A program made the translations under genes and the position numbers. Source: Actinomycetes bacterium (GTDB lineage Bacteria > Actinomycetota > Coriobacteriia > Coriobacteriales > UBA8131). Taken from it: a stretch of DNA of 64,000 nucleotides. Where the stretch lies: contig WRGR01000045.1 in assembly GCA_009787085.1 (NCBI GenBank), positions 75-64,074 on the forward strand, read 5' to 3'. Shown in pieces: positions 1 to 7,719 of the stretch; the stretch's first letter is position 1; every line of letters starts with the position of its first letter. The notes below the pieces were generated by a model. It ran no database searches. It saw only the letters and a list, made by a program, of their open reading frames with translations, and was not told the origin of the DNA.

Positions 1-945
1 GTAGCCACCCGGCGGCACACCCAGCGCATCCAACATGCCGACCGGACGGCCACGTTGTATCTCTGCAGCGATCAGCTTACGCTGGGCAATGACGATGATC
101 ACCGAGCCGGACAAGGCAACGGCATAGAAAACAACCATCCCCAAGTCCGAAACCCCCAGCAGCAAGAACAGCACGCTGAGTCCGTTGTTCAAGATATGCA
201 GCAGCATCGCCCACTTGATCGAGAAGCGCTGGCAGACATAGGCCAGCAGCAAGCCGACGAAAAAGGCGAAAATAGATTGGAACAAAATCATATGGTAGGC
301 ACCAAAAAGCAGCGATGAGATAACAATGGAGAAGTTCACCCCATAGCGCTGAAGCGAGCGCATAATGGCACCACGGAAGATGATCTCCTCAAAAATCGGG
401 CCGACCAAAACGATATAGGCTATGCCCCAAAACGACTTGGCCAAGGCGTTGATAGTTTCATCCAGCATACCGCCAGAGGATGAGCCGCCTTGAGGCACCA
501 TCAACGCTTGAGCCAGGAATTCCCCTAAAGCCCAAACCGCGCCGACTCCCAAGATCAAGACTATGATTTGCAGAAAATGGGGTATATGAATACGTTGGTT
601 AACATGTGTTAAATCTGATGTCACTAAGCGCTTGCCGCGCAGCGCAAACATGATGCAGGCACCGATGGCAGCCGCAGCGCAGGAGGCAAAGCCCATCCAA
701 GGACCGAGCGACTCGAGTGTCAACGACTGGACTTGAGCCGTCAATTCATCGTAGCTCATGCCGATGTTGCTGGGGTCACTGGCGATCCTCATCATCTCTG
801 AAAACAGGCCAGAGGCAAACATGCCGATAATCATGACAAAGGAGTTCACGATCAGCGTGATCACAAAGTAGCCGATCAGGCAGAGCAAGATGATCATGAC
901 CTGCTTTCGCAGATCCTTCTTGTAGAGAAACGGAATATCAGGCAT
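1..945 (-). CDS. CPBP family intramembrane metalloprotease (CAAX/Abi type); the 3' end runs off the window
   Basis: Absent from the ORF track because there is no stop inside the window. My own reverse-strand translation from the ATG at 945-943 gives 315 uninterrupted codons: MPDIPFLYKKDLRKQ...GPIFEEIIFRGAIMRSLQRYG...SLLFGAYHMILFQS...KWAMLLHILNNG. This contains the EExxxR, FxxxH and HxxxN motifs of the CPBP/Abi family, set in hydrophobic segments. Confidence 0.8.
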   Translation of the reverse strand, partial: MPDIPFLYKKDLRKQVMIILLCLIGYFVITLIVNSFVMIIGMFASGLFSEMMRIASDPSNIGMSYDELTAQVQSLTLESLGPWMGFASCAAAAIGACIMFALRGKRLVTSDLTHVNQRIHIPHFLQIIVLILGVGAVWALGEFLAQALMVPQGGSSSGGMLDETINALAKSFWGIAYIVLVGPIFEEIIFRGAIMRSLQRYGVNFSIVISSLLFGAYHMILFQSIFAFFVGLLLAYVCQRFSIKWAMLLHILNNGLSVLFLLLGVSDLGMVVFYAVALSGSVIIVIAQRKLIAAEIQRGRPVGMLDALGVPPGGY

Positions 946-1138
946 CTCGTCGACCTCTCTCTTAGCTGCTTAGCTGTCACCCTGTCCTCATGTCTCCAAG
1001 ACAGATTAAACGATATCTGGCCTATCCAAGCAATTTGTTTATCACCCTTTTAAAAGTCACGTTTGCCACAAAGGCGGCACAGTGCGCCTGGCCTTGCTGC
1101 CACCGCTGCCCACAGTACTAGGCAGCACAGAGTCTTTC

Positions 1139-1247
1139 GGGCCAAAGTAGGCTAAAAAACACCTATTTTGGCCCATTCAAACGGCTATTTTCGGGGTTTT
1201 TGGCTTCTTTCGAGCCAAAGTAGGCCAAAACATTCCATGTTTGGCCC
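1139..1247. repeat. Two related imperfect palindromes sharing the core GCCAAAGTAGGC
   Basis: GGGCCAAAGTAGG-n10-CCTATTTTGGCCC lies at 1139-1174 (12 of 13 arm positions pair). A weaker copy, GAGCCAAAGTAGG-n10-CCATGTTTGGCCC, lies at 1212-1247. The 12-nt core GCCAAAGTAGGC occurs at 1141-1152 and 1214-1225. Both are in the intergenic gap between the CPBP gene and the ATPase pseudogene. Confidence 0.5.
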
Positions 1248-1272
1248 GTTATGGCAGCGCTGATATCACGCC

Positions 1273-1880
1273 ATGTCAATCAGCAAAGGACAGAAAGTGG
1301 CGATAGTCGGCAGAAGACCTGAAAAACAAGAACTGGAGCGGTACTACCATTCAAGCTCTCCAGAGCTGTTGGTCGTTTATGGCCGTCGGCGCGTCGGCGC
1401 GGCCTTCTTGGTCAAGCAGTTCTTTGAAAACCGTTTGCAGGGCATTCACACTAAAGACGAGTATTTCTGGACAAACTACATCGAGGACGGAGCACACCGG
1501 GCGTGGTGCGGCTATGCGTTCGAATCAGTCTGCAGGGCGCACATCAAGCAGATCAAGGAGAGGCTGGCATCACAGGGGTGTCTACCTCCACAATGTCTTG
1601 GCGCAGCAAGAAGTCACAGCCAGCCGCACAGATCGGCCTGCTGATCAGCCGTCGAGACAGCGTGATCAACCTTTGTGAGATCAAATATCTCAAGCATCCC
1701 TACGAGTTGGACGCAACAGCAGCCGCCGATCTAGAGCGGAAGAAGTCCGTCTTCCTCACCGAGACAGGAGCAAAGGATGCGATTCACGCTACGATGATCA
1801 CCGCCTACGGCTTGGCACAAAGCGGTTATCGCAGCATCGTCCAGTCAGAAGTAACCATGAACGACCTGTTCCATCAATGA
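1273..1880 (+). pseudogene. Decayed AAA-type ATP-binding protein (archaeal-ATPase/DUF234-like) with an internal deletion and a +1 frameshift
   Basis: The N-terminal piece ...ELLVVYGRRRVGAAFLVKQFFENRL has the P-loop lysine/threonine replaced (GAA where GKT is expected). The C-terminal piece continues in another frame (ORF 1503..1880): GITGVSTSTMSWRSKKSQPAAQIGLLISRRDSVINLCEIKY...SIVQSEVTMNDLF. The frame switches near 1568 (ctg-g-gc-atc). The total of about 200 codons compares with the roughly 450 I recall for intact family members. Confidence 0.7.
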
Positions 1881-1893
1881 TCTAGCAGCCTAC

Positions 1894-3438
1894 TCATTGT
1901 TCGGTCAAGTTGAGTTGTTTTAGCAGCCAGGTCATCCAGGTTTCTTGGCCGGACACTATGTCGGCCTGCACCGTCATGCCGGCACTGGCCTCCTGGGCGG
2001 GGCTGCCGGCCTTCTGCAGGGTGCTGCTGTCCAGCGCGGCCTCGACCCGGTAGAACTGGCCTGCGCCCTCGACGGGCATCGAGGTGGCGGAGATGTAGTC
2101 CACCGTGCACTGCAGGCGGCCATACTGCTGGTAGGGATAAGCGCTGACCGAAAGCAGCACCTTCTGGCCGTGGCTGACCTGGGCGATGTCCTTGTCCGCG
2201 ACCATCAGCACCACCCGCGGCCGGCCAGCAGCCGGCACGATGTGCAGTATCGCCGTACCCGGCTGGATGACCTCCCCTGCCGTCAGCTGGTCGTCGAACA
2301 TCACGGTGCCGTCGCTGCTGGCGGTAATGGTGCCGTTGGCGATCTGCTGCTGAAGGTCGTTGACCTGTAGCTGGCAGGCATCACGCGCCTGCGTCGCGGT
2401 GTCCAGAAGCGTCTGTGCCTCCGAGATCTTCTGCTCCCGCAGCTGAGTGAGGGTCAACGTGACCAGCTGGCCCTTGTCCGCCGCTCCGGCCTGGGAGCTG
2501 GCCTGGGCGATCTGGTCTTGGTAGGCGGTGATCTGGGAGCTGGCCTGCTCGACGACGGTCTGGGCCTGCGTGTTGTAGCTGGCCAGCACCGAGTTCAGTT
2601 GCAGCTGGGCGCTGTCTTCGGCCTGCTTGGCGGCATCGACATCGGCTTGCTCCAGCACACCGGCGGCCAGCCCCCGCTCGGCCTCGGCATACTTGGCCGC
2701 CGCTGCGTCTAGAGCCTGCTGGTAGACGCTGCGCTCGCTGGTGAACGACCGGTAGATGGACATGGCGTAGGCATCCGGTGAGGAGAAGCCCTCGGAGTCG
2801 GCCATCGCCCCCTGTAGGCGCTGGTACTCGCCGATCTTCCAGTTCAGGTCGCCGATGCGCTGCTGGTAAAGCCCGGCCAGGGCTGTCGAGCCCTGCTGGG
2901 TCTGCGCAGACTGGGTGCTCTCCACCCGGTTGGTCTCGGTGATGATGTTGCGCTCGGCCAGGTAGTCTTGGTACATGGAGTAAAGCGGATCCTCCACGGC
3001 CAGCAGGTTGGTGCTGTCCAGATAGCTCTGCTTCAGGGTGTTCAGGCTGGCCAGCCTCTGGTTGGCAGCGTCCAGCTGGCCTTGGTACACACCGAGCTGG
3101 GACTGGGCATAGCCGATGTCCAAGACCACCAGCGCGTCGCCGGCATGCACCTCGGCGCCGTTGGCCACCTTGACCTCGGCTACCTTGCCGCCCGCCACCG
3201 CCGTCACGGCCTCGGCCTGGGTACCCGGCTCGATGATGCCTTGGGCGCTGACGGCCACGTCATGCCGCATCAGCAGCAAAAACAGCAGCGCCAGCAAGAC
3301 TGCCGCCAGCAGTATGGTCAAAAACCACCTAGCCACCGGCGGCACACTGGCCTGCATGACCTCCTTGCTGTCGGTGATCTGCTCAAAGTAGGCTTCCTGC
3401 CTACCCCGCTTACCCAATCTGTTCCTCCTGTTAGCCAT
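1894..3438 (-). CDS. HlyD-family secretion/accessory protein (LcnD/ComB-like bacteriocin export adaptor)
   Basis: 514-aa ORF. It has an N-terminal basic segment and one TM (WFLTILLAAVLLALLFLLL), a biotinyl-lipoyl-like motif (GGKVAEVKVANGAEVHAGDALVVLD), a long Q/A-rich coiled coil and a C-terminal beta-barrel region. Its start ATG (3438-3436) shares one nucleotide with the upstream TGA (TGATG). Confidence 0.85.
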   Translation of the reverse strand: MANRRNRLGKRGRQEAYFEQITDSKEVMQASVPPVARWFLTILLAAVLLALLFLLLMRHDVAVSAQGIIEPGTQAEAVTAVAGGKVAEVKVANGAEVHAGDALVVLDIGYAQSQLGVYQGQLDAANQRLASLNTLKQSYLDSTNLLAVEDPLYSMYQDYLAERNIITETNRVESTQSAQTQQGSTALAGLYQQRIGDLNWKIGEYQRLQGAMADSEGFSSPDAYAMSIYRSFTSERSVYQQALDAAAAKYAEAERGLAAGVLEQADVDAAKQAEDSAQLQLNSVLASYNTQAQTVVEQASSQITAYQDQIAQASSQAGAADKGQLVTLTLTQLREQKISEAQTLLDTATQARDACQLQVNDLQQQIANGTITASSDGTVMFDDQLTAGEVIQPGTAILHIVPAAGRPRVVLMVADKDIAQVSHGQKVLLSVSAYPYQQYGRLQCTVDYISATSMPVEGAGQFYRVEAALDSSTLQKAGSPAQEASAGMTVQADIVSGQETWMTWLLKQLNLTEQ

Positions 3439-5606
3439 CAGGCCTGCCTATCGGGCATCTGTTTGTTCCAAAGGCCGCTGTAGGCCCCGCCGGCGGCCAG
3501 CAGCTCGGCATGGCTGCCGCTCTCCACGATGCGCCCGTCATGCATCACACAGATCAGGTCGCAGTGCATGATGGAGGAAAGGCGGTGGGCGATCAGGAAA
3601 ACGGTAGTGTCGGCGGCCATGTTCTGGATGGTGCGCTGAATCACTTGCTCGGAGCTGGAATCCATGTGGCTGGTGGCCTCGTCCAGTATCAATATCTCCG
3701 GGTCGCGGATCAAAACGCGGGCGATGGCCAGCTTCTGGCGCTGGCCGCCGGAGAGGTTGGCGGCGTTCTCCTCCAAGTAGCTCTCGTAGCGCAGCGGCAT
3801 CTTGTTGATGAAGCTGGCCGCGTCGACCAGCTCGCAGACCGCCGCCATCTTCTCCATGTCCGGCTCCGCCAAGCCCATCATCAGGTTCTCACGGATCGAT
3901 CCGGAGAAGAAGTGCGGCTCTTGGGGCACATAGCCGATCCGGGTGCGCAGGGCGTCCAAATCGATGTCTTTGATGTTGTAGTTGCCAATGCGGATGTCGC
4001 CGGCCTCCCAGTCGTAGAGGCGCAGCAGCAGACTGACTAAGGTGGTCTTGCCCGAGCCGCTCTCCCCCACCAAGGCCACCCGTGCCCCCTTGGGGGCCTT
4101 CAGGCTGACACCCTCCAAGACCAAGCGCCTAGTGCCGTAACGGAAGGAGATGCCCTCGATGGCAATATCGCCCTTCAGGGTCGATGGGAAGAACTTGCTG
4201 CCGCCCTCGCGGGCATCTTCGCCCTCCAAGGCCAGTATCTCGCCCATCCGGTTGGCGGCCACCACTGCGGTCTGCAGCTGGGGTTGGAGGTTAATGATGT
4301 TGCGCACCGGGTCGATGAAATAGACCAGCAGGGCGTTGAAGGTGATCAGCCCGCCCAGCGTCATGCGGCCGTCGAGGATCTCCAACACGCCGACCCAGAG
4401 TATCACCGTGCCGCCGACTGCCGCTATCACCGTGGTGATAGTGCCTTGGGCGTTACCGATGAAGCCACCGGTGAAGACGCTCTTCAACAACCTGACGAAG
4501 AGGGTGTCGGTCCGGGCGCGAGCCAGCGCCTCGTTGCGGGAGACCTTGATCTCCTCGATGCCGTTGATCGACTCCACTAGGTAGGAGGTCAACTGGGCGT
4601 TGTTCTCCATCATCTTCTCGTTGATGTTGCGGATCGGTCGGTTGAAGGCGAACACCACGACCGCGTAGAGGACGACGACAACTAAGGCGATGACGAAGAG
4701 CATGGCGTTTTGGGTGTAGAGGATGATGCCGCCGATCACGGCCATCAAGGCATCGATCATCACCGTCAGGGCGGTGCCGGAGATAGCATCGCGGATCTTC
4801 GAGGCGTCCATGAAGCGGGCGACGATCTCGCCGATCTTGCGGGTGCCGAAAAACGACATCGGCAGCCCCATGACATGCTTGTAGTAGCCGAGCAGCAAGG
4901 GGATGTCCAGTTTCTGGGAGAGGTAGAGCGTCAGTTGGCCGCGGAAGAACTCCGTGACTGCCTTGACCACGTAGAGCGCGATGACACCGATAGAGATAGT
5001 GGTCAGGGTGGTGACCAAGTGTCCGGGGACGACCGAGTCCATGATCACTCGAAAGTAGAACGCCCCGAGGATGCCAAACAGGGTGATCAGCACGGAGGCC
5101 AAGAATATCAGGGCCAGCAGGCGCTTCTGCGGCAGCAGCAGCTTAAAGAAGCTGAGCAGGTAGTTCTCCACCTTCTTGCCGGCCACGAATTCCGGGGAGG
5201 GGGCGATAAGGATGATGATGCCCAGCCAAGTTTTGAGGAACTCCTCGCTGGTGTAAGGCACAACGCCCTTGGCCGGATCAGCAACCACCAGTTTGTCTTT
5301 GGTTTTTTTGTGGATCACCACATAGTGCAGCTCTCCGGAAGGGCTGGCCACCAAAGCGATGGCCGGCAAGGTGAAGTCTGCTGCGAATGCCGTGTGGTCG
5401 CCCTTGACCGGTCGGGCATAGAAGCCGAGCTGCTCTGCCGCCTTGACCATGCCGTAGGCGTTGGTACCCATTTTGTCGGTGCCAGCAGCTTCACGGATCT
5501 TCGATATTGAGATTTTCAGCTTGTAGTGCTTAGCGATAGTTGCCAGACAGGCCGCGCCACAGTCAGTGCTGTCATATTGTTTAACACAAGCGTACCGCTT
5601 AAGCAT
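3438..5606 (-). CDS. Peptidase C39 domain-containing ABC transporter (bacteriocin/peptide cleavage-export, PCAT type)
   Basis: 722 aa. The N-terminal C39 domain has the catalytic Cys context YDSTDCGAACLATIAKHY and His in GELHYVVIHK. It has a six-TM core, Walker A GESGSGKTTL, signature LSGGQRQKLAIARVL, Walker B ILILDEATS and H-loop LIAHRLS. Confidence 0.92.
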   Translation of the reverse strand: MLKRYACVKQYDSTDCGAACLATIAKHYKLKISISKIREAAGTDKMGTNAYGMVKAAEQLGFYARPVKGDHTAFAADFTLPAIALVASPSGELHYVVIHKKTKDKLVVADPAKGVVPYTSEEFLKTWLGIIILIAPSPEFVAGKKVENYLLSFFKLLLPQKRLLALIFLASVLITLFGILGAFYFRVIMDSVVPGHLVTTLTTISIGVIALYVVKAVTEFFRGQLTLYLSQKLDIPLLLGYYKHVMGLPMSFFGTRKIGEIVARFMDASKIRDAISGTALTVMIDALMAVIGGIILYTQNAMLFVIALVVVVLYAVVVFAFNRPIRNINEKMMENNAQLTSYLVESINGIEEIKVSRNEALARARTDTLFVRLLKSVFTGGFIGNAQGTITTVIAAVGGTVILWVGVLEILDGRMTLGGLITFNALLVYFIDPVRNIINLQPQLQTAVVAANRMGEILALEGEDAREGGSKFFPSTLKGDIAIEGISFRYGTRRLVLEGVSLKAPKGARVALVGESGSGKTTLVSLLLRLYDWEAGDIRIGNYNIKDIDLDALRTRIGYVPQEPHFFSGSIRENLMMGLAEPDMEKMAAVCELVDAASFINKMPLRYESYLEENAANLSGGQRQKLAIARVLIRDPEILILDEATSHMDSSSEQVIQRTIQNMAADTTVFLIAHRLSSIMHCDLICVMHDGRIVESGSHAELLAAGGAYSGLWNKQMPDRQA

Positions 5607-5725
5607 CTGCTGACCCGTCTATACGTGAACTGCCGCCACACCTTGCTCGGCTGCGGAATCTCCAGTAGCCGATGCGGATGAGTAGCGGGAATTTGACTAG
5701 AAGACAACCCCCCTACGCAACCGAA

Positions 5726-5760
5726 ACCCAGGTTGTTATTATAGCAATAACAACCTGGGT
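5726..5760 (-). terminator. Perfect 15-bp stem / 5-nt loop hairpin between the peptide gene and the exporter genes (attenuator or terminator candidate)
   Basis: ACCCAGGTTGTTATT-atagc-AATAACAACCTGGGT, checked base by base. It lies 62 nt downstream of the peptide stop (5822) and 120 nt upstream of the ABC start (5606). The trailing sequence on the minus strand is TTCGGTTG, a weak U-tract. Confidence 0.55.
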
Positions 5761-5821
5761 CCGATTACCGTTCAATCAAGAAATAGCCCTTGATTCTTTG
5801 AGAGCGATAGAAACCTAACGC

Positions 5822-6067
5822 TTACCAACGAATCAAAAGATTGGTGAAGGGGGCGATAACCCTGACAAAGCCATCCTTCACGGAGACGTTGACCTTGGTG
5901 TACGGAGCATTCACCTTTACATCAACATCATCTTTGCTGACAACGGAGACGAAGACAGACACGAGGGACGACAAAAAGCCGCTACCATCATAATCCATCA
6001 TCTCTTCCTTGCCGAGCTCGGCAAACCCTGCACCACATACGATTGAACGATCCATTGCCTCTTTCAT
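5822..6067 (-). CDS. 81-aa putative exported peptide precursor with a double-glycine-type (Gly-Ser) leader; product class unknown
   Basis: Strong SD (GGAGGAaagtgaaATG). It is on the same strand as, and immediately upstream of, the C39-ABC/HlyD pair. The N-terminal 29 aa, MKEAMDRSIVCGAGFAELGKEEMMDYDGS, fit the leader consensus positions (F-15, L-12, E-8, M-7, Y-4, G-2, S-1). The predicted 52-aa core is GFLSSLVSVFVSVVSKDDVDVKVNAPYTKVNVSVKDGFVRVIAPFTNLLIRW. Confidence 0.6.
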   Translation of the reverse strand: MKEAMDRSIVCGAGFAELGKEEMMDYDGSGFLSSLVSVFVSVVSKDDVDVKVNAPYTKVNVSVKDGFVRVIAPFTNLLIRW

Positions 6068-6120
6068 TTCACTTTCCTCCGTTCTTACAGTTTCCTGCTG
6101 GACAAACTAACTGAGAACAG

Positions 6121-6129
6121 ATTGTACCA
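6121..6129 (-). promoter_or_regulatory. Candidate extended -10 element (TGGTACAAT on the minus strand) for the peptide gene
   Basis: The reverse complement of 6121-6129 reads TGGTACAAT, about 53 nt upstream of the peptide ATG. I found no convincing -35 at 17-nt spacing (ACGCCA), which would fit an activator-dependent promoter. Confidence 0.3.
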
Positions 6130-6312
6130 CACTGTTCGGACCTTGGCGTGAGAATATGGATTTTTTATGTTAATTGCTATCGACAATCCATCCACACTTT
6201 GGCTGCATAACTCCGTAGTAGATCATATAATACCCTTTCTTTTGCGTCATATTGCTATATTTAGGATACATTTGTAATATCATTTATATAAATTGGTTAT
6301 GCAAATATAGCA

Positions 6313-6414
6313 GCAAATGATGGGCTGGTTCTAGGGAACATCTACCGCAACCAGTGCGCGGGCATGAATGAGCCGGGCAAATGATGGGCTGGTTCTAGGG
6401 AACATCTACCGCAA
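6313..6414. repeat. 38-bp perfect direct repeat (period 64 bp) duplicating the 3' end of the MFS gene
   Basis: GCAAATGATGGGCTGGTTCTAGGGAACATCTACCGCAA occurs at 6313-6350 and again at 6377-6414. The second copy contains the last two codons and the stop (6406-6408) of the MFS gene plus 29 nt of its 3' flank. Confidence 0.9.
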
Positions 6415-7719
6415 AGCATCTGTCTGGGAAGCAGCAGCAACACCTGCCTCACGGGTAACACGAACCGCAACTAAACAGACAGAGGCACAAGACATGCCAA
6501 TACCACCAACTATCAACAGCCAGTCAATGGGAACCAAGTCGGCAAGCGGGCCAAAAAACGCCATGCCAAGGGGCATAGTAAGTGACCCGATCATCATGAA
6601 CACCGAGAGCACCCGTCCCATGAAATCCGGGTCGGTCTTCTCTTGAAGAATAGCCGACATAGGCGAGTTGAAAAATGGCATGATGATGCCGATGACCCCC
6701 ATACAGGCCAGATAGATCCAAAAGCTGTTGAGAATCCCTAGCCCCACAGCACCCAAACCGAAGGCCAGCGAAGCGGATGCCATGGTGAAAGTACGGTTCT
6801 TAAAGCCGCCCCATACCCCAACAATGACACCGCCAAGCATCATCCCCACTGAGAACACAACCTCCACAGCGCCTAGGCGCCAAGCATCTGCGCCGAACTC
6901 TCGAACAACCTGCAGAGGCGGGAGAAAAGCAGCTGGCACAGCAAAAACGTTAAAGACGATGCCTATGACCAAAAAGGCCAGAATGAATTTCCGATGTCGC
7001 ATATAACGCAGACCAGCTGTGAATTCAGAGAAAAAGCCCGGTTTGGGTGTTGATGCTGCCAACTCTACATCAGCGTTGGAATCGGTCGCCGAGAGGGCAG
7101 CACTTCGCCGCCAGCCCCTATGGGTGCGCACACAGAAAAACACGATGGAAATGCCGATAACAGCAGTCGCCACGTCAACATACATCAGCGCCTGAACTGG
7201 AAAAAACGATAACAATCCCGCCGCTGCCATCGGTGAGGCGAATGTTGAGAGCGACTGGATAGCAGAACTGAAGCCGTTTACCCGAACCAGCTGGTCAGCA
7301 GGAACAATGTCAGGAAGGATGGCAGATACTGCAGGCAGTTGGATACCCTGTCCAAAGCCGCGCACCAACATACAAACGAAAAGCAGTCCCAACCACTGAA
7401 TACCAGCCGAGAATAGAAGCGCCATAACCAAGGTCACCAAGGCAATGACAGCATCAACGAAGTTGATGAGGTATTTACGGTTATAGCGGTCCGCCCATAC
7501 GCCGCCAAGGGGTGACGCAACGGCCATGGGCACCATCAAGGCGATAGTGAAGAGCATCAGCACGATGCCTGACTGCGTTTGCAGTGTCACATACCAGCTG
7601 ATGGCATAGCCGGTGATCATCGTGCCGAACAATGTGACTGCTTGGCCCACAAGGAACAAAGCGACGGTTCTTTTCCAAGCAGGAGAAAGCGCCCCTAGCT
7701 CTTGTTTTTCACTAGCCAC
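6406..7719 (-). CDS. MFS transporter (MFS_3 / EntS-Mef-like efflux family)
   Basis: 437 aa with about 12 predicted TM segments. The motif GGVWADRYNRKYL after TM2 is typical of this MFS subfamily. Confidence 0.8.
   Translation of the reverse strand: MASEKQELGALSPAWKRTVALFLVGQAVTLFGTMITGYAISWYVTLQTQSGIVLMLFTIALMVPMAVASPLGGVWADRYNRKYLINFVDAVIALVTLVMALLFSAGIQWLGLLFVCMLVRGFGQGIQLPAVSAILPDIVPADQLVRVNGFSSAIQSLSTFASPMAAAGLLSFFPVQALMYVDVATAVIGISIVFFCVRTHRGWRRSAALSATDSNADVELAASTPKPGFFSEFTAGLRYMRHRKFILAFLVIGIVFNVFAVPAAFLPPLQVVREFGADAWRLGAVEVVFSVGMMLGGVIVGVWGGFKNRTFTMASASLAFGLGAVGLGILNSFWIYLACMGVIGIIMPFFNSPMSAILQEKTDPDFMGRVLSVFMMIGSLTMPLGMAFFGPLADLVPIDWLLIVGGIGMSCASVCLVAVRVTREAGVAAASQTDALR

Follow-up and report, generated by a model that had tools for sequence, protein, structure and literature searches.

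The window analysed here is a 64-kb stretch of DNA from an actinomycete MAG, and it holds an operon read from the minus strand in the order peptide gene, hairpin, peptidase-containing ABC transporter (PCAT) and LcnD/HlyD-type accessory protein. The precursor gene (5822..6067, minus strand; 81 codons plus a stop codon at 5822-5824) was taken from the open reading frame list and the sequence itself, and its translation, MKEAMDRSIVCGAGFAELGKEEMMDYDGSGFLSSLVSVFVSVVSKDDVDVKVNAPYTKVNVSVKDGFVRVIAPFTNLLIRW, agrees as written with the 81-aa peptide of the original prediction. A strong ribosome-binding site (Shine-Dalgarno GGAGGA at 6075..6080, minus strand, read directly from the sequence) lies 7 nt 5' of the ATG at 6067. 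Further upstream, an AT-rich region with a GC content of about 0.43 contains a weak sigma-70-like promoter candidate, ATGACG and TATGAT spaced by 17 nt (6222..6250, minus strand), which agrees with the consensus at 9 of 12 positions in a scan where the number of sites did not exceed chance expectation. Between the peptide and transporter genes, the inverted repeat I1 forms a stem-loop with a perfect 15-bp stem followed by UUUCGGUU (5726..5760, minus strand). The RNA of 5690-5825 folds at -52.3 kcal/mol (z = -7.5), and a terminator scan did not flag the stem-loop, which is probably a partial terminator or attenuator. No plausible small gene was found between the peptide and transporter genes, and Rfam and tRNA scans of the window were empty.

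The PCAT (722 aa; 3438..5606, minus strand) carries the Pfam domains C39, ABC_membrane and ABC_tran and scores 680 bits against TIGR01193 (cutoff 524) and 726 bits against PCAT1 (4RY2). Its C39 domain (residues 5-138; 5193-5594, minus strand) contains Q10, C16, H94 and D110, and the last three align with C21, H99 and D115 of PCAT1, leaving the catalytic residues intact; as would suit a PCAT substrate, the peptide is thus encoded beside a transporter that keeps the catalytic Cys/His/Asp. The accessory protein (514 aa; 1894..3438, minus strand), whose start codon shares one base with the PCAT stop codon at position 3438, was assigned from HlyD_3, from HB_LcnD and Beta-barrel_AprE in precomputed Pfam matches, and from TIGR01843 and TIGR01000, both matched below their cutoffs. 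About 950 bp downstream of the accessory gene lies a gene for a CPBP / Rce1-like (Abi) membrane protein (1..945, minus strand; PF02517, 65 bits), of which the N-terminal 315 of 523 aa fall inside the window and the remainder beyond its start. A frameshifted ATPase remnant on the opposite strand separates this gene from the operon and makes its linkage to the operon loose.

For about 10 kb in each direction from the peptide gene, the gene table lists no modification enzyme, histidine kinase or response regulator, and the only radical-SAM gene in this 20-kb neighbourhood is MoaA, in a molybdopterin operon. The window contains no second double-glycine (GG) peptide. A word-indexed search of 5.8 billion proteins with the 81-aa peptide returned the self match only and no orthologue, and tblastn searches of plasmid records with the peptide and with the consensus of the family described below gave no match; one further occurrence of the locus was found in Logan SRR5247074, where the DNA is 100% identical over 6342 bp. 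The GC3 of the peptide gene (0.59) differs from that of the transporter genes (0.84-0.86), pointing to a mosaic origin. Homologues were found independently for the leader half and for the core half of the peptide.

The leader peptide and its cleavage register

The original prediction gave the peptide a 29-aa GG-type leader with a Gly-Ser cleavage site, and gap-free leader alignments, register scoring and the adjacent PCAT all support it. The leader (residues 1-29, ending G28-S29; 5981..6067, minus strand) was delimited by alignment with the leaders of three related loci (L013, L004 and L001), by register scoring and by AlphaFold, which gives residues 1-33 a pLDDT below 50 and so predicts a disordered leader. 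The positions named earlier are correct: F15 stands at -15, L18 at -12, E22 at -8, M23 at -7, Y26 at -4, G28 at -2 and S29 at -1. Accepted leader endings are GG, GA and GS, with the consensus L(-12)xxxE(-8)L(-7), and SunA, a glycocin, is cleaved after GS (PMC6363468). GG-type leaders run to about 15-30 residues and close with Gly followed by Gly, Ala or Ser (positions -2 and -1), and G28-S29 at the end of 29 residues agrees with this. Y26, M23, L18 and F15 supply the hydrophobic positions of the recognition helix (-4, -7, -12 and -15) and E22 its Glu at -8, all in register with the site. An alignment free of gaps pairs the L013 leader GFAELSSDEMQVVDGG with GFAELGKEEMMDYDGS of this peptide, and the GG of five canonical leaders falls exactly on G28-S29.

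The main scoring matrix had 15 columns and was built solely from GG leaders found beside related PCATs in this analysis. With it, register 29 scored 20.2 bits, the next register -0.2, and none of 5000 shuffles did as well; when positions -1 and -2 were omitted, register 29 was still at the top (18.1 bits vs -1.7). A second matrix, made of textbook leaders, also placed register 29 first, at a level not significant alone (p = 0.12), and the two leader sets combined gave p = 0.002. Cuts after G28 or G30 had been expected to fit less well, and registers 28 and 30 indeed lie far below 29 in all three matrices. The proposed check against curated GG-leader models, on the other hand, failed to recover the peptide: neither TIGR01847 nor PF10439 matched it, at E <= 10 in an NCBIfam-type scan or at E <= 1 in Pfam, while control peptides from L013 and L004 matched both TIGR01847 (12.9-15.8 bits) and PF10439. 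Pfam and NCBIfam scans of the peptide gave nothing above threshold. Its best Pfam match was a very weak one below cutoff, PF16934, the type 2 lantibiotic leader (E = 0.17), and in that weak alignment S29 shares a profile column with the second Gly of the L013 leaders.

Two of the related loci are particularly informative for the leader. L001, in a Coriobacteriales MAG, has the closest related transporter (PCAT 73% identical), and L013, on a metagenome contig, has a PCAT that is 60% identical. In both, the peptide gene is upstream of the PCAT gene, as here, and the leaders are homologous to this one, with the pattern F..L...E[ML]..[YFV]D[GA][GS]. L001 also has a hairpin of different sequence at the corresponding place after its peptide gene; the intergenic DNA is not conserved with L001, and only the leader codons align. 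The cores are unrelated to the one described here, that of L001 being a hydrophobic Ala/Val/Gly-rich 44-mer and those of L013 Trp/Gly-rich 30-mers. Homologous leaders on unrelated cores indicate that the export module carries swapped cargoes. At the positions aligned to G28-S29 the L001 leader reads A-G, so that Gly at -2 is not strictly kept in this subgroup. Curated models miss this leader subtype, which ends in G-S here and in A-G in the closest relative and has an aromatic residue at -4.

In known systems, the leader docks on the peptidase domain through its residues at -4, -7 and -12, with no specific recognition of the cargo itself (PMC6959990). We considered size complementarity at -4, and it was not borne out: Y(-4) faces Ile130 here, and PCAT1 has Gly135 opposite M(-4). 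When the two positions were compared for covariation, the Gly135 equivalent was Ile where -4 is Y or F (this locus and L001) and Val where it is V or T (L013).

The locus as a whole resembles the class II systems of the lactococcin A type (LcnC/LcnD), which have the same gene order of precursor, PCAT and LcnD-type accessory protein. Its transporter is close to PCAT1 of the PCAT1-CtA system of Acetivibrio thermocellus, with the catalytic triad present in both, and the 52-aa cargo is close in size to the CtA cargo of 66 aa (PMC6959990). Like class II leaders, this one is hydrophobic at -4, -7, -12 and -15 and carries Glu at -8 and Gly at -2; unlike in class II GG systems, it ends in Gly-Ser and has Tyr at -4 and Met at -7.

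The core repeats and their family

Cleavage in register 29 would release a predicted mature peptide of 52 aa (residues 30-81; 5825..5980, minus strand) with an average mass of 5726.6 Da and a pI of 9.4; its 6 K/R against 4 D/E agree with the 52 residues and net charge of +2 expected for it. The peptide begins with a hydrophobic segment, G30-S44 (GFLSSLVSVFVSVVS; 5936..5980, minus strand), read from the sequence, in which AlphaFold places a strand at 39-43 with low to moderate confidence. Two related segments, K51-V61 and R69-I79, had been noted 18 residues apart, and both are found at those positions. The repeat that they had been taken to define is real, and its true unit is longer than the 11 residues first proposed: it spans 18 residues, 43-60 and 61-78. 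The best 17-mer pair has a BLOSUM62 score of 32 (p <= 0.001 against shuffles) and the best 11-mer pair a score of 26 (p about 0.01). Repeat unit 1 (residues 43-60, VSKDDVDVKVNAPYTKVN; 5888..5941, minus strand) is a predicted beta-hairpin with an A-P turn, based on the repeat statistics, the alignment to the family profile and AlphaFold strands at 49-54 and 57-62. Repeat unit 2 with the conserved C-terminal end (residues 61-81, VSVKDGFVRVIAPFTNLLIRW; 5825..5887, minus strand) was assigned by alignment with family C-termini and by the profile.

The AlphaFold prediction that had been suggested for the core was run and gave, after the disordered leader, a confident beta-meander of five strands, with pLDDT above 90 for residues 60-81. 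In this predicted structure the repeats make up a single-layer beta-meander, one face of which is entirely hydrophobic (V/V/A, V/V, V/V/A, L/I/W). We infer that this face must be buried, either by self-association or by membrane binding. Weak structural resemblances were seen to phage spike proteins and to the CPAP G-box, which are single-layer, oligomerising sheets (E = 0.03-0.3, not significant), and a search of PDB sequences with the family profile yielded nothing significant. In addition, each unit, VKVNAPYTKVNV, resembles the VKVKV-pPT-KVKV of MAX1 (PDB 2N1E), a designed amphiphilic beta-hairpin, in that alternating Val/polar strands flank a Pro-containing turn that is followed by Thr. 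Unlike natural kin, MAX1 is artificial; the match (E = 2) is not significant and is no evidence of descent, and serves as a lead on self-assembly only.

The 18-residue repeat of the peptide is the unit of a larger protein family, which bears out the internal repeat a second time. A phmmer search of 1.84 billion representatives with the peptide retrieved repeat proteins ending in RW (E = 9e-7 to 8e-4), and a profile search extended these to at least 266 family members (clusters), mostly metagenomic. The family pattern consists of three [V+V.AP.T.V.V] units, and all members end in ...RVRAPYVNLDIRW. Against a test profile built without this peptide, the peptide scored 44.1 bits, with residues 43-81 on profile positions 20-58, and the best of 2000 shuffles scored 8.6; the alignment covers the last 39 residues and runs end to end at the C-terminus. 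The last 32 aa align with family C-termini free of gaps at 53-63% identity and share with them the terminal RW, the Gly that separates the units and the A-P turns. The peptide therefore carries the marks of the family, tandem 18-residue V+V.AP.T.V.V...G units and a C-terminal ...AP[YF][VT]N[LV].[IV]RW, and it is the only frame in the 64-kb window to match the profile, with no second family member present. Taken together, these sequence comparisons show that the peptide and an unnamed family of small Sec-exported proteins have homologous repeats.

Family members of the Sec type begin with a signal peptide or anchor and contain three repeats, in most cases together with a Pro/Ala-rich linker; among those listed, nearly all sequences of apparently full length show three units and an N-terminus that is basic and hydrophobic. 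They share with the peptide a hydrophobic segment before the repeats and a predicted beta-meander, which has seven strands in the AlphaFold model of one member. The peptide differs from them in having an acidic GG-type leader in place of a Sec signal, two units instead of three and no linker, and in its place in the PCAT operon of an actinomycete MAG. Family members elsewhere are stand-alone genes with no transporter, immunity genes or bacteriocin context. Their genomes carry GapR/UPF0335 and a CcrM-like methyltransferase with a RAMA domain, and because of these alphaproteobacterial markers we call the hosts Alphaproteobacteria. Pfam and NCBIfam scans of six members found no family or model, and no paper containing the C-terminal motif APYVNLDIRW came up in a full-text search.

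Possible roles of the exported peptide

Based on these results, we consider it highly probable that the gene is real, that its product is cut after S29 and that the adjacent PCAT exports it, the cleavage and export being predicted. Beginning with transcription from the AT-rich upstream region and translation from the GGAGGA site, the following course of events is proposed. The stable hairpin after the stop codon would probably let only part of the transcripts reach the transporter genes. By analogy with the PCAT1-CtA and LahT structures, the acidic 29-residue leader could form a short amphipathic helix, seating L18, M23 and Y26 in a hydrophobic groove of the C39 peptidase domain, with F15 as an additional conserved hydrophobic position upstream, and G28-S29 would then lie in a narrow active site formed by Cys16, His94 and Asp110. 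The bond after S29 would be cut and the 52-residue cargo pumped out with the assistance of the LcnD-type accessory protein. The released peptide, of 5.7 kDa and net charge +2, would consist of a 15-residue hydrophobic N-terminus, two 18-residue beta-hairpin repeats and the ...IRW end.

Several readings of the gene and its processing compete with this one. It is extremely improbable that the frame is a chance one that is not translated: it is short, it is absent from all other genomes searched and its GC3 departs from that of the adjacent transporter genes, yet it is preceded by a strong ribosome-binding site and followed by a hairpin, occupies the position just upstream of a transporter gene that the L001 and L013 cargo genes also have, resembles other proteins significantly and independently in leader and core, and is the sole match to the family profile among the frames of the window. 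A cut after G28 or G30, or a peptide that is no substrate of the adjacent transporter, is improbable. The three small residues of G-S-G leave some latitude, the A-G-A of L001 would offer a canonical G-A site equivalent to a cut after G30 here, and the curated leader models are silent on the peptide; against this, both other registers score far lower in every matrix, the GG of canonical leaders coincides with G28-S29, and the positions of the helix upstream of the site are enough by themselves to fix register 29 here and its counterpart, register 25, in L001. We also regard as highly improbable a RiPP precursor, such as that of a class II lanthipeptide or a glycocin, which would fit the faint PF16934 match, the GS site of SunA (PMC6363468) and the several Ser and Thr residues of the core. 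That match is below cutoff, the core has no Cys and is homologous to ordinary Sec-exported proteins, and the 20-kb neighbourhood has no LanM, glycosyltransferase, radical-SAM maturase or other modification gene. This lack of modification enzymes, over about 10 kb on each side in the gene table, is what an unmodified bacteriocin would call for.

What the peptide does once outside the cell can be read in several ways as well. That the peptide serves as a secreted signal of the ComC or BlpC pheromone type and not as an effector is very improbable; PCATs do export GG-type pheromones (PMC6363468, PMC7595303) and some L013 leaders weakly match ComC and BlpC models, but the peptide itself does not match them, its mature part is a structured repeat domain of 52 residues belonging to a protein family, and the genes within about 10 kb on each side include neither a histidine kinase nor a response regulator. 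A more serious contender, though still unlikely, is that the peptide is cleaved and exported and is not a toxin, remaining anchored in the membrane of the producer by its hydrophobic N-terminus or assembling into a surface beta-sheet with a structural, adhesive or amyloid-like function. This would mirror an envelope role of the Sec-exported relatives in other bacteria, which join the same repeats to an N-terminal signal or anchor and stand alone, with no transporter or immunity genes beside them. A predicted single-layer sheet with a fully hydrophobic face would favour self-association, and the likeness to phage spike proteins and the CPAP G-box, and to the self-assembling hairpin MAX1, points the same way. 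These matches are not significant, however, and the dedicated PCAT and LcnD-type systems known from Gram-positive bacteria mostly serve bacteriocins and pheromones (PMC6363468); a CPBP/Abi gene is nearby, and the related loci L013 and L001 have typical bacteriocin-like cargoes.

We favour a membrane-active bacteriocin, with the CPBP/Abi protein as its immunity factor, as the likeliest role of the peptide. Bacteriocin clusters and self-immunity have been linked to CAAX/Abi proteins (PMC9298176, PMC4517551), and in L013 two CPBP/Abi-type genes are interleaved with the GG peptide genes, making the protein encoded at 1..945 a candidate immunity factor. That the open reading frame at 5822..6067 is a genuine gene for an exported, unmodified peptide precursor, a cargo of the class II bacteriocin type, we hold to be reasonably probable; that the mature peptide is antimicrobial we purely infer, at slightly less than an even chance. 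For the cut and the export, an ordinary bacteriocin-type locus is the most likely account. The export module is textbook, and the locus itself adds little to it. The unexpected part is the core, drawn from an unnamed beta-hairpin-repeat family that is elsewhere Sec-exported; it is unrelated to any described bacteriocin family, and its predicted fold is that of a beta-hairpin repeat instead of a helix or a YGNGV-type structure.

Since curated models miss this leader subtype, genome mining based on those models will overlook such cargoes in Coriobacteriia-like actinomycetes. If active, the peptide would rank as a 5.7-kDa bacteriocin of beta-sheet type that has no cysteine and no modification. 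A bolder idea, which we consider unlikely, is that it represents the first PCAT-exported member of a hitherto unrecognised beta-hairpin repeat family of two phyla and acts by the assembly of its amphipathic single-layer sheets into an oligomeric beta structure, which would be a surface fibril or a pore in the target membrane. If this were true, its mode of action would be unlike that of helical or disulfide-stabilised class II bacteriocins, and one domain would have moved between the Sec and GG-leader export routes. Through this cargo, at least 266 small secreted repeat proteins that had no family annotation gain a first clue to function: one member is found here behind a dedicated peptide exporter and near a candidate immunity gene.

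The peptide gene and its export operon

The signals around the ORF at 5822..6067 (minus strand), which translates as MKEAMDRSIVCGAGFAELGKEEMMDYDGSGFLSSLVSVFVSVVSKDDVDVKVNAPYTKVNVSVKDGFVRVIAPFTNLLIRW, show it to be a real small gene. A ribosome-binding site, GGAGGA (6080-6075, minus strand), lies 7 nt ahead of the ATG, and a stem-loop 3' of the stop codon, with a perfect 15-bp stem (5726-5740 and 5746-5760; fold z-score -7.5), is followed by UUUCGGUU on the coding strand. The upstream DNA is AT-rich (GC about 0.43) and holds a single weak sigma-70-like match at chance level. It also contains a 37-aa ORF, MILQMYPKYSNMTQKKGYYMIYYGVMQPKCGWIVDSN (6170-6283, minus strand), without a GG leader; a 37-aa gene predicted at the matching position (60-173) in L025, the Logan assembly where the peptide gene's DNA occurs a second time, is probably its counterpart. 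This ORF is probably spurious. At the upstream border of this promoter region a perfect 38-nt direct repeat, GCAAATGATGGGCTGGTTCTAGGGAACATCTACCGCAA, is present in only two copies in the window (6313-6350 and 6377-6414, starts 64 nt apart), the second spanning the final codons and stop of an MFS gene (6406..7719, minus strand). The repeat may be the trace of a junction or of a duplication.

The peptide gene adjoins an intact peptidase-containing ABC transporter (PCAT) and accessory protein. The PCAT (3438..5606, minus strand; 722 aa) begins 215 bp after the peptide gene, carries Pfam C39, ABC_membrane and ABC_tran domains and scores 680 bits against TIGR01193 (cutoff 524). Its nearest solved relative is PCAT1 of Acetivibrio thermocellus (4RY2; 726 bits), with whose catalytic triad Cys16, His94 and Asp110 align, Cys16 matching the position mutated to Ala in entry 7N87. 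The accessory gene, whose start overlaps the PCAT stop, encodes 514 aa with HlyD_3, HB_LcnD and Beta-barrel_AprE domains. About 950 bp beyond it, on the same strand, lies the gene for a 523-aa CPBP/Rce1-like (Abi) membrane protein (1-945, minus strand), which runs past the window start (15123-16694 in L024, a record extending further); its known-domain match is confined to residues 171-255, no family being matched by the long C-terminal part. Genes of this type are linked to bacteriocin self-immunity. Between the accessory and CPBP genes, on the opposite strand (region 1273-1880, plus), two overlapping ORFs look like a frameshifted or truncated ATPase remnant: that at 1273..1644 has weak similarity to the N-terminal end of an archaeal-type AAA ATPase (ATPase_2), and that at 1503..1880 has no match. 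GC3 across 1894-7719 is 0.84 for the PCAT, 0.86 for the accessory gene, 0.59 for the peptide gene and 0.57 for the MFS gene, other window genes ranging from 0.63 to 0.72; given this mosaic, the cargo gene may have a history different from that of the export genes.

The leader and its relatives

The original prediction placed cleavage of a GG-type leader after S29, and its numbering is exact: F15, L18, E22, M23, Y26 and G28 fall at -15, -12, -8, -7, -4 and -2. Accepted leader endings are Gly-Gly, Gly-Ala and Gly-Ser, with the recognition consensus L(-12)xxxE(-8)L(-7), and SunA is cut after GS by LahT150 (PMC6363468). Related loci were fetched using the window transporter as query, and their canonical GG leaders supplied a 15-column scoring matrix, by which the 29-residue register is best (20.2 bits, the next register reaching -0.2; none of 5000 shuffles as good); with positions -1 and -2 omitted it still scores 18.1 bits versus -1.7. 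G28-S29 share MAFFT columns with both glycines of five canonical leaders. These comparisons show the window leader to be homologous, in its sequence, to GG leaders. The curated models proposed as a check do not recognize it, however: TIGR01847 and PF10439 have no match to the window peptide, whereas control peptides from L013 and L004, two loci with related PCATs, do match.

In PCAT1-CtA and LahT, a hydrophobic groove takes residues -4, -7 and -12, the cargo is not specifically recognized, and the -4 residue has been proposed to complement PCAT1 Gly135 in size (PMC6959990). Such complementarity is not seen here, where the equivalent residue, Ile130, faces Tyr(-4).

L013, a metagenome contig whose PCAT is 60% identical to the window's, is a typical multi-bacteriocin cluster, with four peptide genes bearing canonical GG leaders and two interleaved CPBP genes. 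Its leaders resemble that of the window peptide, one of them, MEMVMSNGFAELSSDEMQVVDGG followed by S, being collinear with the window's GFAELGKEEMMDYDGS followed by G. The region (1-7200, contig Ga0129308_1001931) also holds the PCAT and a 630-aa accessory protein, and three of the four cores are Trp/Gly-rich. The closest PCAT (73% identical) belongs to L001, in Coriobacteriales MAG JAIRUT010000040.1. There, less in keeping with a GG-type site, the cargo gene (3101-3310) encodes a homologous leader with Ala-Gly at the aligned -2/-1 positions (EMYEFDAG/AISL) instead of Gly-Gly/Ala/Ser, and an Ala/Val/Gly-rich core unrelated to the window core; a hairpin follows this gene too, different from the window's. 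Curated families give no match to the L001 cargo.

A repeat family in the core

The 52-residue core carries six K/R and four D/E, giving the net charge of +2 originally estimated, and K51-V61 and R69-I79 do lie 18 residues apart. The internal repeat was borne out as well, the 17-mer pair 43-59/61-77 scoring 32 (p <= 0.001). An exhaustive phmmer search of 1.84 billion representatives returned 12 matches, half of them proteins of 77-171 aa with repeats like those in the C-terminal half of the peptide; all but one of the six terminate in RVRAPFTNVxVRW or RVRAPYVNLDI[RK]W. The last 32 residues of the peptide align to the family without gaps at 53-63% identity. A family profile, built from 126 members with the window peptide left out, scores the peptide at 44.1 bits (best of 2000 shuffles, 8.6), aligns residues 43-81 to profile positions 20-58, to the C-terminus, and matches no other six-frame ORF of the window. 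As judged from this profile, the core is shown to be homologous to an unannotated repeat family; therefore, the 11-residue repeat first noted forms the centre of a true repeat unit of this family, 18 residues long.

Profile searching gave at least 266 family clusters, none with a Pfam domain or a useful name, and we found neither a Pfam or NCBIfam model for the family nor a paper mentioning its C-terminal motif, making it a candidate new domain family. Members (P0005-P0138; L021 5001-5354, L023 5001-5330) span 64-171 aa, and nearly all end in RVRAPYVNLDIRW or in something very like it. Among the listed members of apparently full length, nearly all begin with a signal peptide or anchor, basic and hydrophobic and in many cases bearing an AxA-type cleavage motif; a Pro/Ala-rich linker usually comes next, and then three units of 18 residues. 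In two contexts the members are stand-alone genes adjoining GapR/UPF0335 or a CcrM-like, RAMA-domain methyltransferase, and therefore presumably alphaproteobacterial.

AlphaFold2, given the family alignment, shows residues 1-33 as disordered (pLDDT below 50) and predicts five strands (39-43, 49-54, 57-62, 67-72 and 75-80; pLDDT above 90 from residue 60 on), with A-P at the turn of each unit's hairpin; for family member P0057 it predicts a seven-strand meander with similar confidence. One face of the strands presents V/V/A, V/V, V/V/A and L/I(/W) and the other is mostly polar or charged, and a one-faced sheet of this predicted kind would need a partner surface. Foldseek found nothing significant for the predicted structure; its weak best matches (E = 0.03-0.3; phage phi92 spike protein, PhiTE baseplate protein, CPAP G-box) are all single-layer sheets that oligomerise. 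A profile search of PDB sequences was likewise without significant matches, the designed hairpin MAX1 at E = 2 being a mere curiosity.

Probable export and possible function

As an export system, the locus is an ordinary one of the class II bacteriocin type. From established knowledge of PCATs, the leader helix would dock on the transporter, the bond after S29 would be cleaved and a peptide of 5726.6 Da would be exported in an ATP-driven manner. More weakly, the peptide may be antimicrobial, with the CPBP/Abi protein as a candidate immunity factor; bacteriocin loci commonly hold CAAX/Abi genes (PMC9298176, PMC4517551).

The main rival to an antimicrobial role is that the peptide is exported yet non-toxic, and is either anchored in the membrane or assembles with itself, as may also be true of its Sec-type relatives. 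Other readings are unlikely. Cleavage at another register is one of them: a matrix of textbook leaders likewise puts register 29 first, though not significantly (p = 0.12), and both leader sets combined give it p = 0.002. That the peptide is a pheromone or a RiPP precursor is improbable too, the gene table listing neither a two-component system nor a modification enzyme within about 10 kb either side of the peptide gene. It is also unlikely, given its well-placed signals, that the ORF is spurious. No orthologue of the peptide was found, a word-indexed protein search returning the peptide itself alone (MCL1880224.1, from a MAG named Actinomycetia/Actinomycetes bacterium), and its sole other occurrence is identical DNA.

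What is new here is a cargo family without described relatives and with a predicted beta-hairpin repeat fold, a cargo domain that also occurs behind Sec signals in another phylum, and a leader subtype missed by curated models.
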